DNA from: Promethearchaeota archaeon
GTDB lineage: Archaea > Asgardarchaeota > Lokiarchaeia > Sigyniarchaeales > SOKP01
Reading direction: 5' to 3'
Assembly (NCBI GenBank): GCA_019058245.1
Contig: JAHPZJ010000028.1
Coordinates: 32,001-96,000 of the forward strand
DNA: 64,000 nt
Shown here: positions 33,084-48,896 of the stretch, one piece after another
Numbering within the stretch: position 1 is the first letter of the stretch
Layout of the letters: each line of letters begins with the position of its first letter
Translations under genes and position numbers: made by a program
Notes under the pieces: model-generated
Told to the model about the DNA's origin: nothing
Database searches by the model: none
The model's input: only the letters and a program-made list of their open reading frames with translations

Positions 33084-35174
33084 ATGGTCCAACCATTTGG
33101 AAAAAAAATGACTTTGCATAAAGAAGGAAGAGTATATACACCTGAAAATTTAACAAATTACATAGCAAAAATTTCAATTGAAAAATTTCTAATAGATAGA
33201 ATAAATATAAAATTTTCAACTAAAATAAGGAGTATTTCAACCCTATTAGAAAAATATAATGAATCTGAAAATGCTGAACGAGATGTAATAGAGAATTCTA
33301 TTAATGTATATGATAAAGACCAATTAAAATATATTTTTGAAGTATTAAGGGATCTTAGTATATTAGATCCTGCTGTGGGGAGTGGACACCTTTTAACTGC
33401 TGCTTTAGATGTTTTAGAGAAATTATATTTCAATTTGCGAAGCCTAGGAATAATAAATTGGTCAAATTATAAAATAAGAAAAGAGATTATATCTAATAAT
33501 TTATTTGGAGTTGATATCAATAAAGAAGCAGTTGAAGTTACAAGAAATAGGTTGCTAATAGCTTTAAGTGAATCGATTTCAAACGAAAAAGATAATAATC
33601 TTTTCCCAAATATTGATTTAAATTTAAGAGTAGGAAATGCGCTAGTTGGATATACACATCAATCCGAAATTATTTCTCATAATTATAATAATCTAAATGA
33701 TAGTTTTTATGATGAAATTAAACAACTCTTTCAAACCCATAAAGACCTAAAATTCTCTAATTTAACAGTAGAAGAGAAAAAAATAAAATTATTAGAATTG
33801 AATCCTTTTCACTGGTTTTATGAATTTCCAAAAATTATGGAAAAAGGAGGTTTTGATATAATAATTGAAAATCCTCCTTATATTTCTAATAGACACCTTT
33901 CTCCTCTCGAAAAGGCAGTGTTTAAAAAAAGATATAAAACACCTAAAGGTTTAATGAATACTTTTGGAATCTTTATTGAGAGATCTATTAATTTATCTAA
34001 CTCAATGTCAATAAGTAGTTACATACTTCATAAAAATATTATTCGTTCTAATAATTATCATTTGTTGAGGAAATACCTTCTTGAATATACTACTATTGAA
34101 GAAATAATTGATATAGGAGACAGTGCTTTTCCATCCATAACTGCAGAAATAGTTATTTTTCTCATAAAAAAGGAATCCGCATCAAAAGATCATAAAATTA
34201 AAATAATAACTAATTTCAATAACCAAAATTTACTTTCAACTAGAGATATTTTAGTCAAGAAATTACCCCAAAAACTCTATTTAGAGCAAGAGAATTATAA
34301 TTTTAATTTAGAACTCCAATATGATGAACTTGAGATTATTAATTATATTAAAGAGAATAAAGAATATGTTTTAAATGATTTTTTTGAAGCCAGAACGTGT
34401 ATTGCCACTGGAAATGACACTAAATTCTTAAAAGATCATAAAGTTAACAGCAAGTTCAAAAAAACGCTCAGGGGTAAAAATATTGGTCGTTTTTATATAG
34501 AATTTGACGGATTATATGTTAATTATGACCCTAAAGCACTCCATAGGGCTCGGGAAGAATTGATATTTCAAAAACCTGAAAAATTAATAATGCAAACAAT
34601 TAGTTCAAATCTCACTGTAGCATATGACAATAATAAATATTATCCATTAAGTACTTGTATTGTGATAATCCCTAAAGATAATTTGGATGAAGTATTTAGT
34701 ATTAAATATCTTCTCTTATTGCTGAATTCGAAAGTTATGAACTTTTATTATGATTTTATATTTAATTTGGGCGCACGTTTAACTACTGAGATTTCTGTTA
34801 ATAATATTAATCGATTACCGCTTAAAGTACCTAAAAATTATGAGATTTTTGATAAGTTAACTGATATAATGACAGTGATGAATAAAAATATAGTTTTAAG
34901 AAATGAAAATAAATGTAAAATAGATTTTTTAGATGATTTAATAAATCATTTAATTTATGAGATTATTTTTTTAAATAAATTTCAAATAGATGGGTTAAAT
35001 ATCGAATTAATCAACAGAGTATCCTTATATCTTAAGAATCTAAAGCAGTTATCATTTGAAAGATTAGAGCTTTTTATTAAAAACTTACAAAGTGATGAGG
35101 ATATAAATAATGAAGTAGAAAATATTAACAAACATCCTTGGATTATTAAAATAGAAAAATACTTTGAAAAATAA
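33084..35174 (+). CDS. N6-adenine DNA methyltransferase (Eco57I/TaqI-like, gamma class) with target-recognition domain
   Basis: VYTP, ILDPAVGSG (motif I), FGVDIN, FHW..EFP, GFDIIIENPPY (motif IV), LLLNSK TaqI_C-like region. Confidence 0.88.
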   Translation: MVQPFGKKMTLHKEGRVYTPENLTNYIAKISIEKFLIDRINIKFSTKIRSISTLLEKYNESENAERDVIENSINVYDKDQLKYIFEVLRDLSILDPAVGSGHLLTAALDVLEKLYFNLRSLGIINWSNYKIRKEIISNNLFGVDINKEAVEVTRNRLLIALSESISNEKDNNLFPNIDLNLRVGNALVGYTHQSEIISHNYNNLNDSFYDEIKQLFQTHKDLKFSNLTVEEKKIKLLELNPFHWFYEFPKIMEKGGFDIIIENPPYISNRHLSPLEKAVFKKRYKTPKGLMNTFGIFIERSINLSNSMSISSYILHKNIIRSNNYHLLRKYLLEYTTIEEIIDIGDSAFPSITAEIVIFLIKKESASKDHKIKIITNFNNQNLLSTRDILVKKLPQKLYLEQENYNFNLELQYDELEIINYIKENKEYVLNDFFEARTCIATGNDTKFLKDHKVNSKFKKTLRGKNIGRFYIEFDGLYVNYDPKALHRAREELIFQKPEKLIMQTISSNLTVAYDNNKYYPLSTCIVIIPKDNLDEVFSIKYLLLLLNSKVMNFYYDFIFNLGARLTTEISVNNINRLPLKVPKNYEIFDKLTDIMTVMNKNIVLRNENKCKIDFLDDLINHLIYEIIFLNKFQIDGLNIELINRVSLYLKNLKQLSFERLELFIKNLQSDEDINNEVENINKHPWIIKIEKYFEK

Positions 35175-42178: not shown

Positions 42179-42310
42179 TTCATATGAACATAATAAGAGG
42201 TCATATTAAAAAACTTAAGGAAATCTAAAATTTTTACGAAAGAAAAAAGATTTTTAAATTTTTAATTTATTTATTTTTATATTGTTAGAATACACTTGAG
42301 AGTGAATATA

Positions 42311-43177
42311 ATGCAACTATTCAATATTAACAATAAGGGAGAAATGATAGGGATAGATAGATTAGATTTTGATGCTAATGATGTATATCTTGTGGATGAT
42401 ATAGAAAAAAATACAATTTACATTTGGGTCGGAATGGAAGTAGAACAAAATAAAAAAGATATCACAGCAGATATCGCAAGAAAAATTGATAAAGAAAGAG
42501 GGGGATCAGCAAAAATCCTTATTATGAAACAAAAAAGAGAATATGGTTCCTTTTTAGCAATGATGAATGATTTAATAAAGGGGAATATACCTGGAAAAAC
42601 AATTGAAAGAAGACCTGAATTCGTATTTAAGGCACCTCCTAAAACTATTAAACCTAATAGGGCTGAGCAAACATCAGAAGAGAAAACGATTAATCTTGAA
42701 GAGAGAATAACAAAATGGCTACTACAAATTAAAGAACATAGAGTATTTGAACCAGACAAAAAAGAAAGTCTTGATGCTGTAAAATTCATCAAGTTTGAGG
42801 AGTCCCATGAAGAAATACAAACTGAGAGCAAAACAGAGGCAGAACAATTGTTAGAGCAAACGGAAAAACATAAAGAAATTGAACCCGAATTTGTTGAGGT
42901 AGAACTGGAAGAACCTGATTTAAAAACAGAAATAAAAGAAGCTGCATATTTTCTTTCCTTAGACAGATACTCCTATAACGATTTATGTTGGATGTTGGCT
43001 GAAAAAATTCAAAAAATGAATATTGTAATGCCTTCTATTGAAGATATAAAACGAAAGGCAGAAGAAGTCTTTAGTTCAAGTTGTACTTATGACGAACTAT
43101 GTTGGTTAAATGCTGAAATGGATATATTGATTAAGAAAAGCTTTATTGAAAAAGAGAAGAAGATGTTTAGATATTAA
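42311..43177 (+). CDS. Single gelsolin-like domain protein with a duplicated C-terminal helical repeat
   Basis: FDANDVYLVD...IYIWVG...ARKI..ERGG..KI....Q.RE...F; two IK..A..[LV].....Y..LCW..AE repeats; ATG after a GAGAGTGA SD. Confidence 0.75.
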   Translation: MQLFNINNKGEMIGIDRLDFDANDVYLVDDIEKNTIYIWVGMEVEQNKKDITADIARKIDKERGGSAKILIMKQKREYGSFLAMMNDLIKGNIPGKTIERRPEFVFKAPPKTIKPNRAEQTSEEKTINLEERITKWLLQIKEHRVFEPDKKESLDAVKFIKFEESHEEIQTESKTEAEQLLEQTEKHKEIEPEFVEVELEEPDLKTEIKEAAYFLSLDRYSYNDLCWMLAEKIQKMNIVMPSIEDIKRKAEEVFSSSCTYDELCWLNAEMDILIKKSFIEKEKKMFRY

Positions 43178-43200: not shown

Positions 43201-43506
43201 TTATCCACAACAACTATTGTTTTGAGGATTTTTAGCAACAGAGCGAGCATTCCATAAGCAACCACAACCTTTTTGTTCTTGTAAAAAAATTGCCATTGTA
43301 GGACAATTTCTTTTACAAGCAGAGCACTCCGTGCAAAGTTCTGGATTATTAATTTCAAATTTCCCATCTTTATTTGGAGTTGGGAGTCCAAAAGGACAGA
43401 TTTCTCCACATATACCACAACCTGTACATAAATCAGGGTTGATTGAGATCTTTGGGATATTTAATGAAATTTTAACTGATTTTGATTTTAATGTTAATTT
43501 GATCAC
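43201..43506 (-). CDS. hgcB: HgcB-like 2x[4Fe-4S] ferredoxin with C-terminal Cys tail
   Basis: CTGCGICGEICP, CTECSACKRNCP, then GCGC and terminal SCCG; immediately downstream of the hgcA-like gene. Confidence 0.8.
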   Translation of the reverse strand: MIKLTLKSKSVKISLNIPKISINPDLCTGCGICGEICPFGLPTPNKDGKFEINNPELCTECSACKRNCPTMAIFLQEQKGCGCLWNARSVAKNPQNNSCCG

Positions 43507-43558
43507 CTTTTTTTTTCCTATTAATAATATTTGTTTATATTATTTATCTTAATTTGTT

Positions 43559-45247
43559 TTAAAATATTAGAGGGAAAATGATACTAATAGCTAGAGATAT
43601 TAAACTAATTATAAATAAAACCATATTGATTTTACTGAAAATTGGATATTCTTCTTGGATCTCCCGAGGGCTAGTTGCCATAGTATATCCACTGTACGAC
43701 ATTGTAGAGAAGAATGCTAACCAAAAGTAAAAGCAAGATTGCCATAATATTAAGAAGAATGAATTATGAATAAGCCAAGATATACTACTTAATAGAAAAA
43801 CATTTATAATACCATAAATCAAACCTTTAATAATAAATCTTCGAGTGAAATTGGTAATAGGGTATAAAAACATAATTGATGCATTAGTAATAATAACCCA
43901 AAGCCAAATTTCAGCAACAATCCACATTAACCTTATTTCTACAATATTTAATATGCTTAATCCTAATATAATTAAAATTAATGCAACACTTGGCCATAAG
44001 AAAATCTTTCGAAATAAAAATGTAGTATGCGTAATAGCTGCACGCAAACGATGAGAAGCTGTAAATCTTGCTAATCTCATTTTCTCTGGCTTTCGAGCAG
44101 GGCGTTCATTTAGAAATTTAGGAATATGTTTCGCCCATACAGGTCCAAATAAGATATTATATGGGAAATTTGACGCTTCACTTTTTATTAAGGGAGATGC
44201 AATTCCTCCAGCAGAAAGTTGAGGAAGTATTAATGTTTTCTTATTAGAAATATTAGTAATATCAGTTGCTTCTACTGCTTCAATCAATTGTTTATTTCCA
44301 AAATTATTTCCTCGAGCTGCACACCAAACATTTATCCCATTAGAATCAACACATAAAACCCAAGCGTTTATCCCTTTAAGAGCACGCATTAATTTAATAT
44401 ACGTATAACTATAATTAGCAGTTACTAAAATAGGTGAATCTCTGTCAGGAATCCCCGATTTATAAATACCTGGCTCTATTGGTACATGATCTACCTGTCC
44501 TGTAAAAATACAACGATAAATGTTCATTTGCGCCCGAAATCCTTTAAACTTTTTAAACTTAGGATGATAATAACCAGGTTCTTTTAAATTATTATTCTGA
44601 ATCTTTTTTAATTCAATAACTCGAATAGAACCATGATTCCATCTTTTTTCTGCCACTAATTTAAAACCAATAGGCTCTAAATAATTGAAAAACCATTTGA
44701 CTAAAAATGTATTAGGCAATCGGAGCCTACCTAATTTTTTTTTGTACTTCCAACGTTTAATGTTAAAAAAAATTCTCCAAAGCCCAGAGGGGACAAATTC
44801 AGCGGCAAGTATCATCCGACCATTCGGTTTTAAAGCCTTCCAAGCATTTCTTAGAAAAGTTTGTTGTTCAAATGGTCTAAGTTCTGAAAGCATAAATGTA
44901 CTTACAATCAAATCTTTAGAATTATCTTCAGCAGGTAAATCAGTAATTGATCCTATTTGGTATAAAAGTTTCGTTTTGGATTCAGAAGGAAAATTTTTCA
45001 TAGCCGTGTTAATCATTTGTAAGTTTTTATCAATAGCTAGAACTTCACTCCCCTTTAACGCCATTTTTTTAGCAAGAGCTCCTGTACCGCATCCTACTTC
45101 TAGGATAATTTGTGGTGCTTTAATTCGTTCTATTATCCAATTCTGAACTTCGATATTCGTACCTTTTGTAAGTTCAGTGAATTTTGATTCATAAGTCTCA
45201 GGCTCTAATTCCAATTTCCGCATGTAGACTACAGCTATTTTATTCAC
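43559..45247 (-). CDS. hgcA: Class I SAM methyltransferase fused to an HgcA-like corrinoid-binding domain and membrane anchor
   Basis: ILEVGCGTG, AID, DLIVSTFMLSE, LKPNGRMI; then IEPGIY..G.PD..SPILVTANY, GINVWCAARG, LILPQLSAGG, FGPVWA and about 5 C-terminal TM helices. The symbol denotes homology; Hg activity is unproven. Confidence 0.8.
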   Translation of the reverse strand: MNKIAVVYMRKLELEPETYESKFTELTKGTNIEVQNWIIERIKAPQIILEVGCGTGALAKKMALKGSEVLAIDKNLQMINTAMKNFPSESKTKLLYQIGSITDLPAEDNSKDLIVSTFMLSELRPFEQQTFLRNAWKALKPNGRMILAAEFVPSGLWRIFFNIKRWKYKKKLGRLRLPNTFLVKWFFNYLEPIGFKLVAEKRWNHGSIRVIELKKIQNNNLKEPGYYHPKFKKFKGFRAQMNIYRCIFTGQVDHVPIEPGIYKSGIPDRDSPILVTANYSYTYIKLMRALKGINAWVLCVDSNGINVWCAARGNNFGNKQLIEAVEATDITNISNKKTLILPQLSAGGIASPLIKSEASNFPYNILFGPVWAKHIPKFLNERPARKPEKMRLARFTASHRLRAAITHTTFLFRKIFLWPSVALILIILGLSILNIVEIRLMWIVAEIWLWVIITNASIMFLYPITNFTRRFIIKGLIYGIINVFLLSSISWLIHNSFFLILWQSCFYFWLAFFSTMSYSGYTMATSPREIQEEYPIFSKINMVLFIISLISLAISIIFPLIF

Positions 45248-45397
45248 ACCTATTTATCGTATTTTAGAAAATTCTTTTTAATTTTTATTCATAAAAAGTC
45301 ATATTAAATTTAATTTTTCAGTCGAATAAATCAAAAAAAAAATAAAAAACTTGAGATTAAATTTTTTAAATTTTGCTTTTGATAGAATTATATTAAT

Positions 45398-45481
45398 TTA
45401 ACAACACCCTTCTTTTGATTGGGATTCCTCTTCATCATTTTTAGGTTCTTCAGAACAACATTCTTTATCTTTATCTTCCAT
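45398..45481 (-). CDS. 27-aa acidic di-(Cys-Cys) peptide MEDKDKECCSEEPKNDEEESQSKEGCC
   Basis: Below the ORF-track cutoff; ATG...TAA, GAGGT SD about 12 nt upstream, own BRE/TATA and operator. Confidence 0.75.
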   Translation of the reverse strand: MEDKDKECCSEEPKNDEEESQSKEGCC

Positions 45482-45523
45482 AAGTAATTAAGACCTCGTT
45501 TATATTTAATTGTTAGATAATTG

Positions 45524-45555
45524 ATAGTTAGGAGCCTAACTATATAAATGTTTCG
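45524..45555 (-). promoter_or_regulatory. BRE-TATA promoter overlapped by a perfect palindromic operator (probable MarR site)
   Basis: ATAGTTAGG-ag-CCTAACTAT at 45524-45543; minus-strand CGAAACA-TTTATATA at 45541-45555; degenerate copy at 45563-45580. Confidence 0.75.
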
Positions 45556-45622
45556 TTTCATATAATTAGGAACTTAACAAAATAATTTAATTTAAAATTT
45601 TAAAGGAGCGTAAGTTAAAGCG

Positions 45623-46087
45623 TTAACATTTTAGTGAGTTTAATAATTTCTGAAGTAATTCTCCTAACTTTTTCACCTCTTCTTCATTGATTTCTGGACA
45701 ACACCCATTAACGATTGATTCTAAGGGAGGAGTTTCATTTTTTAAGTTTTTGCCCTTTTCTGTAAGTTTAACAAGGAGACTTCTTCTATCCGAAGGATGT
45801 AATTTGCGAGTAACTATCTTCTTTTTTTCCATTGTATCTACTACTCCTGTAATTGTAGATCTTGAACATCCACATTTTTCTGCTAATTCTTTAAATTGTT
45901 GACCATCGGATTCCCATAGCTGACTTAATATAAAATGCTGTGCTGGAGTTAGTTCTAATTCTTGAATATTATTACGCTTTAATTTTTCGTATTTCTTATT
46001 TATGGTATTAATTAAAGAAAATACATTGACAATATGTTTAGGTTTACATGAATTTTCACATAATTCATGGTTTTTTTTTTCACTCAT
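45623..46087 (-). CDS. Cys-rich MarR-family transcriptional regulator
   Basis: LTPAQ..IL..LW, SRSTITGVVDTME, DRRSLLVKLTEKG; Cys in CENSC, CGC, GCC and at the C-terminus. Confidence 0.9.
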   Translation of the reverse strand: MSEKKNHELCENSCKPKHIVNVFSLINTINKKYEKLKRNNIQELELTPAQHFILSQLWESDGQQFKELAEKCGCSRSTITGVVDTMEKKKIVTRKLHPSDRRSLLVKLTEKGKNLKNETPPLESIVNGCCPEINEEEVKKLGELLQKLLNSLKC

Positions 46088-48314: not shown

Positions 48315-48896
48315 TTATTTACTCAACTTTTCTAGCAAAAAAGCAAAATTCTTGCCTAAATTTTCAAATGTTTCAATACCCTCTTCATCATCCAACACTT
48401 CTCCCGCTTGTCTTCCAATTCCTACATTCCAATAACTCGAACCAACAACAAACATCTGGTTTATAAGAAAGAAATAGTTTATACTTGAGAAAACATGATT
48501 TGCTCCAGCCCTCCTAACTGCTACAACTGCTGCTCCTACTTTGTGTTTTAATTTTCTTCCAGCAGCATATCCGCAACGTTCTATTAACGCTTTTGTGGTT
48601 GTTGTTAAATTAGAATAATATGTGGGAGAACCAATAATTATTCCATCAGAATTTAACATCTTTTCAATATACTTATTCATATTATCTCCAGGTAATACAC
48701 ACTTTTGATCATCATTATCTCTACATTTCATGCATGCCGTGCATCCTTGCATTTTTTCCATCCCAATCCAATTATAATCACATTCTATCCCAGCTGCTTT
48801 TAATTCATCCATAACGACATTTAAGCAATGATATGTATTTCCTTCTTTTCTGGGACTTCCATTAAATAATACCACTTTCATTATTATAGACCTCAA
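48315..48896 (-). CDS. Iron-sulfur flavoprotein (Isf) / flavodoxin family
   Basis: NGSPRKEGNT, CTACMKC......C, GSPTYY, VRRAGA, GSSYWN. Confidence 0.9.
   Translation of the reverse strand: MRSIIMKVVLFNGSPRKEGNTYHCLNVVMDELKAAGIECDYNWIGMEKMQGCTACMKCRDNDDQKCVLPGDNMNKYIEKMLNSDGIIIGSPTYYSNLTTTTKALIERCGYAAGRKLKHKVGAAVVAVRRAGANHVFSSINYFFLINQMFVVGSSYWNVGIGRQAGEVLDDEEGIETFENLGKNFAFLLEKLSK

Follow-up and report, generated by a model that had tools for sequence, protein, structure and literature searches.

The window analysed here, a stretch of 64,000 nucleotides from a Promethearchaeota archaeon (GCA_019058245.1, contig JAHPZJ010000028.1, positions 32,001 to 96,000), carries at positions 43201-46087 four minus-strand genes for a MarR-type regulator, an acidic 27-residue peptide, a fusion of an S-adenosylmethionine (SAM)-dependent methyltransferase (MTase) with a corrinoid-binding domain plus a transmembrane (TM) anchor, and a ferredoxin. 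We give an even chance to the reading that they represent a metalloid methylation system that responds to As(III)/Sb(III) and depends on SAM and a corrinoid, in which the peptide would serve as thiol buffer or chaperone. This reading was built on gene content, domain order, conserved cysteines, an operator with a regulon-like distribution, and the arsenic-gene context, all of which were observed directly. In this reading, the regulon would handle a thiophilic trivalent metalloid, most likely As(III), methylarsenite or Sb(III). Already known are the hgcA-like genes of Asgard archaea, the link between hgcAB and arsenic, and the CpaM family. New here are an operator-defined split regulon, a sister clade of MarR regulators encoded with arsM, a link between the peptide and the tail of ArsM, and the near absence of canonical HgcA from Asgard archaea. 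In a literature search that excluded the text of Zhang et al. 2023, no published account of the MTase fusion or of the regulon was found.

An earlier sequence-only reading had proposed four co-oriented genes at this locus and an Asgard archaeal origin. All four genes and the Asgard (Lokiarchaeia) origin were confirmed, and the named close loci are all from Asgard archaea, except for one record labelled 'Nanopelagicaceae bacterium' (L022), which has a typical Lokiarchaeia locus and is probably a mis-binned contig.

Identity of the fusion protein and the ferredoxin

Pfam and NCBIfam models split the fusion protein into a class I SAM-MTase domain, a corrinoid domain of the CdhD family and a hydrophobic tail. 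In the AlphaFold2 model (pLDDT 81, pTM 0.77), a Rossmann-type MTase is seen together with the corrinoid domain and about five TM helices. Structural matches of this model were solved MTases and the HgcA model 9a0b (9a0b_A), itself computed. Among the MTase models, CpaM (NF043040) matched the N-terminal domain best, with 131 bits over almost the whole model (cut-off 180), and the domain is 28% identical to the true CpaM of the same genome. ArsM was rejected as identity because the domain reached only 39 bits against NF008823 (cut-off 263) and has a phenylalanine at the position aligned with the catalytic cysteine. Also rejected was CdhE/AcsC, which has an N-terminal FeS domain and a TIM barrel and neither the cap cysteine nor a TM part; here the fusion scored 69 bits (cut-off 306) and lies on a separate branch. 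By these matches, the protein is a divergent CpaM-like SAM-MTase joined to an HgcA paralogue. A frameshift or assembly artefact was rejected as the origin of the fusion in view of 541 related proteins, of which 120 listed ones are full-length with both domains, and when close relatives of the MTase domain were looked for as stand-alone proteins, most of the matches were pieces of the fusion.

The names HgcA and HgcB, given in the sequence-only reading to the fused corrinoid part and the ferredoxin, could not be kept. The cobalt-ligand Cys309 is invariant in 75 sequences. Canonical HgcA identity was nevertheless rejected by cap motif, NCBIfam cut-off, tree position and N-terminus. In the window as well as in each of the 120 top homologues, the cap helix carries RG, not GK, and fails the high-stringency HgcA definition N(V/I)WC(A/S)(A/G/S)GK (PMC10087281). 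Scores stayed under the cut-offs of both HgcA (NF040863; 168.9 bits, cut-off 275) and the HgcAB-like model (NF043039; 177 bits, cut-off 285), the ferredoxin being a separate gene here. In a tree of the corrinoid domain (quick IQ-TREE, 163 columns; all trees of this study were quick IQ-TREE or FastTree runs with long branches), the branch of GK-type HgcA (SH-aLRT 99) excludes all fusions and all HgcAB-like proteins, in agreement with the placement of Asgard sequences in the fused-HgcAB subtree (PMC10083202). Canonical HgcA has an N-terminal CC/CU extension (Haft and Gwadz preprint), whereas in the fusion the MTase occupies the N-terminus and no Cys-Cys pair is present.

The fusion gene starts with GTG at 45247 or ATA at 45238. 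In alignments of this region (window 45223-45251), the start corresponds to ATG in some genomes and to ATA, ATC or CTG in others, its spacing from the Shine-Dalgarno (SD) motif being constant, and in some genomes a stop codon follows the upstream GTG. The fusion likely uses non-AUG initiation, at the ATA in the case of the window.

The ferredoxin contains two CxxCxxCxxxCP motifs (Cys27-37 and Cys58-68), Cys81, Cys83 and Cys99-100, of which Cys81 is invariant and corresponds in position to Cys73 of HgcB. In place of the C(M/I)ECGA motif it reads CTECSA, and it scored 53.5 bits against NF040864 (cut-off 99). A complex of fusion and ferredoxin, the latter docked on the corrinoid and TM parts, was predicted with a score of 0.72 (best control 0.00), which may reflect likeness to a computed HgcAB model in the structure library; the mark applied to such scores was reached by 58 of 80 solved and by 2 of 110 mismatched pairs. 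The runs agree in at least 85% of the contacts, with a partner pLDDT of at least 75.

Elsewhere in the genome, overlapping genes encode a true CpaM (247 bits) and a true HgcA::HgcB fusion (377 bits), both over cut-off. This pair is located on contig C11 (L028:826-2591), and the cap helix of its HgcAB-like fusion has an extra cysteine; P. syntrophicum MK-D1 has a gene for a similar fusion as well (L206). Thus, the three modules are joined in two ways (MTase::HgcA plus ferredoxin, and CpaM plus HgcA::HgcB), which argues that they work together. HgcAB takes its methyl group from SAM (PMC11588087), so that the simplest role of the fused domain would be the methylation of Co(I). A SAM synthetase is present in the genome.

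Of the family's 134 other genomes, 96 gave a match to the corrinoid-TM part (E<1e-80). Fusion and ferredoxin are widespread in Asgard archaea, both cultured Lokiarchaeia included, and the same fusion also occurs in Thorarchaeia and in another distant family. The canonical HgcA motif was found in only 1 of 400 Asgard genomes; this lone cap motif (L272; G397:C110) comes from a genome with 9% contamination and may be foreign. Asgard hgcA-like genes have reportedly been proposed as Hg methylators, as worded in a title. For surveys of methylmercury risk, almost all Asgard 'hgcA' matches appear non-canonical and should not be counted as methylators untested. A bacterial CpaM::HgcA-like fusion with a ferredoxin, on a separate branch, occurs in Ca. 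Abyssubacteria (P0311 / L218:5001-6830), so the fusion is not strictly Asgard. HgcC, known to occur beside canonical hgcAB, directly precedes one fusion (L077:7701-7964; NF040962, over cut-off).

Operator, peptide gene and regulon

The sequence-only reading had described a perfect palindrome over the promoter of the peptide gene. The 9-bp arms are indeed perfect and the site overlaps the TATA-like box (45541-45548); the 2-nt spacer is not self-complementary. Palindromes of this kind are not rare (34 in the window's genome, about 0.7 per 64 kb), and the reality of the operator therefore rests on its conservation: the site is kept at the same place in many relatives' genomes, with changes in both arms. 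When the window's own genome was scanned with a matrix built from the relatives, the main site reached 29 bits, against 14.6 for the second copy and 12 for the unrelated site that came next. With this single strong site, a regulon spanning the window's genome was rejected. Across 135 family genomes, 27 sites with the exact pattern were found, 22 of them flanking a window-type MarR gene and one a paralogous MarR gene, while another three stand in front of module members that are displaced, and one lies at a contig end. Matches with one mismatch were at the level of the reversed control, which did not cover zero-mismatch sites, and were not used. The link of the site to this regulator is shown by several genomes in which marR, too, has a copy of the operator in front of it. 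Near-identical operators are used by more distant MarR paralogues (L254, L256, L258, L260, L261), where they precede a small helix-turn-helix-like gene and another methyltransferase gene; thus, the operator is a trait of the subfamily. A sigma-70 promoter scan of the window was uninformative, the host being archaeal.

In the MarR, Cys72, Cys74, Cys129 and Cys130 are invariant or near-invariant. All of them are common to a sister MarR clade, whose genes directly precede arsM in 12 of 13 loci. Sensing of As(III)/Sb(III) by a MarR with a cysteine triad has a precedent (10.1101/2021.08.12.456183).

The peptide is, by its pattern of variation, a real small gene, since 24 distinct alleles retain the SD motif, the stop codon and both Cys-Cys pairs, differ in length by whole codons, and show an excess of third-position changes with a pN/pS of about 0.5. 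It was absent from the public protein collection searched. Second copies of the gene, duplicated or decayed, are located directly before the fusion in L004, L009 and L024. The ArsM proteins of the MarR-arsM loci have N-terminal Cys-Cys tails, and two loci of the sister clade contain stand-alone peptide copies of this tail in the slot after marR or arsM, for which none of 1000 shuffles scored as well. The window-type peptide shares the slot and the CC-spacer-CC plan with these copies and may have descended from an ArsM tail. It may also supply in trans the CC/CU tail of canonical HgcA that the fusion lacks. The unannotated 27-residue peptide is a candidate for a minimal As(III)-binding module.

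For the gene context, 92 distinct fusion loci with enough flanking sequence were evaluated within a radius of 3 kb; the loci were chosen by us, and related ones are not independent. Conserved linkage of marR and peptide to the fusion, set as a check in the sequence-only reading, was found in relatives together with the operator; a window-type MarR is encoded near the fusion in 15 of these loci. At least 10 loci have the MarR-operator-peptide cassette, often with a gene for a flavin mononucleotide (FMN) reductase, but not the enzyme, and MarR and peptide are missing from most fusion loci, many of which use ArsR/Acr3 instead. The four-part layout is therefore lineage-limited. Judged by this distribution, the core unit is the fusion plus the ferredoxin, and MarR-peptide is a replaceable, lineage-limited cassette.

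These observations and the T-tract between the peptide and fusion genes would also fit a MarR-peptide cassette that buffers metalloids on its own, its position before the fusion being incidental and the peptide having no catalytic role. As an account of the peptide this is possible, if rather doubtful. In G229, the operator stands before marR/peptide, before the fusion and before the ferredoxin gene on three different contigs, i.e. directly before the displaced enzyme genes. In five loci the FMN-reductase gene abuts the fusion without a T-tract, which implies read-through. On both grounds marR/peptide, fusion and ferredoxin are, as far as such sites tell, one regulon, to which the NADPH-dependent FMN reductase also belongs. 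Of the complete sense-bind-methylate circuit claimed in the sequence-only reading, the common regulon is thus retained, but not the four-part arrangement as its core. In a FastTree phylogeny of the fusion, loci with arsR/acr3 are located around the base, the marR-arsM-DUF166-fusion-ferredoxin locus L101 is the sister of the clade to which the window belongs, and within this clade lie the marR-peptide loci. This fits a regulator swap from ArsR to MarR-arsM followed by reduction of arsM to its tail, with rooting and order being presumptive.

The features of the locus are compiled in Table 1. Of the other genes in the window, one for a gelsolin-domain protein (42296-43177, plus strand) is convergent with the ferredoxin gene and has the same position in about 40 loci of the genus, which probably just reflects the chromosomal site. 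A co-oriented gene for an NADPH-dependent FMN reductase (48315-48896) lies 2.2 kb upstream of marR without a strong operator, and an Eco57I/TaqI-type DNA methylase gene is located at 33084-35174.

Table 1. Features of the locus, in window coordinates
Feature	Position	Strand	Basis or remark
MarR repressor, 154 aa	45623..46087	-	PF01047 match
Weaker operator copy, 4 mismatches, position conserved	45562..45581	.	38 nt upstream of main copy
BRE-like and TATA-like archaeal promoter element, conserved	45541..45559	-	putative function
Main operator, inverted repeat, perfect 9-bp arms, 2-nt spacer	45524..45543	.	conservation
Acidic peptide, 27 aa, CC-x16-CC	45398..45481	-	SD at about 45492-45497
T-tract between peptide and fusion genes	45332..45350	-	possible leaky terminator, putative function
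MTase-corrinoid-TM fusion, 562 aa	43559..45247	-	Pfam/NCBIfam and predicted model
Class I SAM-MTase domain, residues 6-214	44606..45247	-	best model CpaM NF043040
HgcA/CdhE-type corrinoid-binding domain, cap helix NVWCAARG	44093..44527	-	Cys309 codon 44323-44321
C-terminal membrane anchor like that of HgcA, about 5 helices	43559..44059	-	predicted model
HgcB-like 2x[4Fe-4S] ferredoxin, 101 aa, 12 Cys	43201..43506	-	Cys81, Cys83, C-terminal Cys-Cys

Arsenic context and alternative explanations

Among the 92 loci, an ArsR with the alpha3 motif CVCE is encoded near the fusion in 44, an Acr3-like permease in 27, an ArsC-like protein in 6 and ArsM in 2, and the association with ArsR was also found in Thorarchaeia. 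In both cultured Lokiarchaeia, P. syntrophicum MK-D1 (CP042905.2; QEE17993.2) and L. ossiferum (CP104013.1; UYP44054.1), the fusion directly follows an acr3-like gene with a divergent arsR, and in L084 and L101 arsM is part of the same operon as the fusion. Neither mer genes nor a gene for a methyl-acceptor TIM barrel were found among the recurring neighbours of the fusion. This context favours As/Sb over Hg, Se or Te as target. The sequence-only reading had listed Hg, As, Sb, Bi, Se and Te; the metal(loid) theme of this list was retained, with the range narrowed by gene context to As/Sb.

The window's own genome has an intact arsR-acr3 pair on another contig (C10), and no ArsM was found in it at 76% completeness. 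Elsewhere on C10 there is a short piece of a broken acr3 that has a TAG inside (pair and fragment: L199 and L200/L201). In other Lokiarchaeia, the operon goes on with genes for a thioredoxin-like CxC protein that has a Cys-Cys tail and no Pfam match (in 23 loci) and for a small protein whose last residues are often Gly-Cys (in 20 loci), as in L091:7533-7991 and L100:7695-8066, and DUF166 precedes the fusion in 14 loci.

In the proposed mechanism, MarR would bind the palindrome over the TATA box and be released when the metalloid binds to the thiols of Cys72, Cys74, Cys129 and Cys130. A short transcript, ending at the downstream T-tract, would provide the CC..CC peptide in excess, which would sequester the metalloid and might hand it on, as a substitute for the N-terminal Cys-Cys tail of canonical HgcA and of ArsM. 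The fused MTase domain would bind SAM and methylate Co(I), with Cys309 as lower ligand, after reduction of the cobalt by the ferredoxin docked on the corrinoid and TM parts. The methyl group of methyl-Co would then be transferred to the metalloid held by Cys81, Cys83 and the terminal Cys pair of the ferredoxin. Any methylation of Hg would be a side activity.

Several points weigh against this proposal. No ars gene or MarR is found near the fusion in 29 of the 92 loci, including all loci of the distant family f16, and the near-universal occurrence of the fusion in the family (see above) also fits a housekeeping role. ArsM is present in 48 of 135 genomes and often co-occurs with the fusion, so the fusion is not simply a substitute for ArsM. 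Deletion of the canonical hgcAB in strain ND132 did not reduce arsenic resistance (10.1101/2022.10.17.512643), and related fused HgcAB proteins gave no Hg methylation in culture. The T-tract in the window may stop transcription before the fusion. A test for direct homology between the window-type peptide and ArsM tails did not show it, the likeness being mostly no better than that of composition-matched shuffles. CobS was not found in the window's genome (76% complete) or in MK-D1, which implies corrinoid salvage.

The near-core distribution of the fusion, often without an ars neighbour, and the NADPH-dependent FMN reductase in the regulon would agree with a response to thiol, redox or electrophile stress. 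Here, the MarR cysteines would sense oxidation, the peptide and the FMN reductase would buffer thiols, and the fusion would methylate a non-metal acceptor at the membrane side (sulfide, thiol, lipid or quinone), with the ars genes as fellow travellers. Cysteine-based redox sensing is common in MarR regulators. The MarR of E. coli is cited in this context (10.1101/2021.08.12.456183). However, ArsR, Acr3, ArsC and ArsM are repeatedly associated with the fusion across Lokiarchaeia, and ArsR in Thorarchaeia as well, the sister MarR clade heads arsM, and the ferredoxin keeps a metal-handling Cys tail; we regard this explanation as unlikely.

Lower still is the probability we assign to an action of the fusion on methylated arsenicals, either by demethylation and methyl harvesting via the corrinoid or by conversion of methylarsenite (MAs(III)) to di- or trimethylated products (DMA/TMA) after ArsM. 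The co-occurrence with ArsM and the arsM genes in the operons of L084 and L101 speak for it, and corrinoid proteins carry methyl groups in both directions. On the other side, a class I SAM domain implies a downhill transfer from SAM to cobalt, and no methyl-acceptor TIM-barrel gene recurs nearby. That the fusion and the ferredoxin are a working Asgard HgcAB with Hg as physiological substrate has a poor chance, because, although the cobalt-ligand cysteine, about five TM helices, the equivalent of Cys73 and the terminal Cys pair are kept, the cap and ferredoxin motifs deviate, the scores are under the HgcA/HgcB cut-offs, the proteins are outside the HgcA clade, mer genes are missing among the recurring neighbours, and tested non-canonical homologues made no methylmercury.

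What HgcAB natively does has long been an open question. A paralogue with its own SAM-binding domain, located in arsenic operons and present in both cultured Lokiarchaeia, makes the arsenic hypothesis directly testable and could help to explain what the HgcAB enzyme family originally did. Tentatively, and with less confidence than in metalloid methylation at this locus, we suggest that the system is an ArsM-independent, corrinoid As (or Sb) methyltransferase with a peptide metallochaperone dedicated to it, and that it mirrors what the family did originally, Hg methylation by canonical HgcAB being a derived or side activity. If this is true, the 'Asgard mercury methylators' would mostly be arsenic handlers.

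Comparison with known systems

The sequence-only reading knew of no earlier description of the four-part arrangement. The four-part layout exists, but the pairing of MTase and corrinoid protein is already curated as CpaM (NF043040) and HgcAB-like fusion (NF043039), which are the best NCBIfam matches of the two domains of the fusion. These proteins, including the 'fused hgcAB' clade (PMC4646819, PMC10083202), consist of the same three modules. Unlike them, the window system has the MTase fused to the corrinoid protein and a separate ferredoxin that keeps its Cys tail, is under both cut-offs, and shows arsenic-type regulation.

HgcA/HgcB of P. mercurii ND132 (NF040863/NF040864; PMC7305189, PMC11588087) likewise combine a cysteine cap helix, a corrinoid domain and a TM anchor with an adjacent 2x[4Fe-4S] ferredoxin bearing the extra cysteine and a terminal Cys pair, use SAM as donor, and are linked to ArsR-type regulators. 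The window system differs by the fused class I MTase, RG instead of GK, the lack of the N-terminal CC/CU tail, another ferredoxin motif, its separate branch, and the MarR regulator with the peptide.

With ArsM and ars operons, the window system has in common the SAM-dependent class I fold, shared operons, a MarR of the same lineage, and Cys-Cys tails. In contrast to ArsM, the fused MTase lacks the catalytic cysteines, so that any As methylation would proceed via the corrinoid. The MarR-ars regulator AdMarRars (10.1101/2021.08.12.456183) resembles the window MarR in having conserved cysteines that include a vicinal pair and in heading arsenic genes. Compared by description, its cysteines are Cys36, Cys37 and Cys157, whereas those of the window MarR are at 72, 74, 129 and 130, and the window MarR, unlike AdMarRars, would act at an archaeal promoter.

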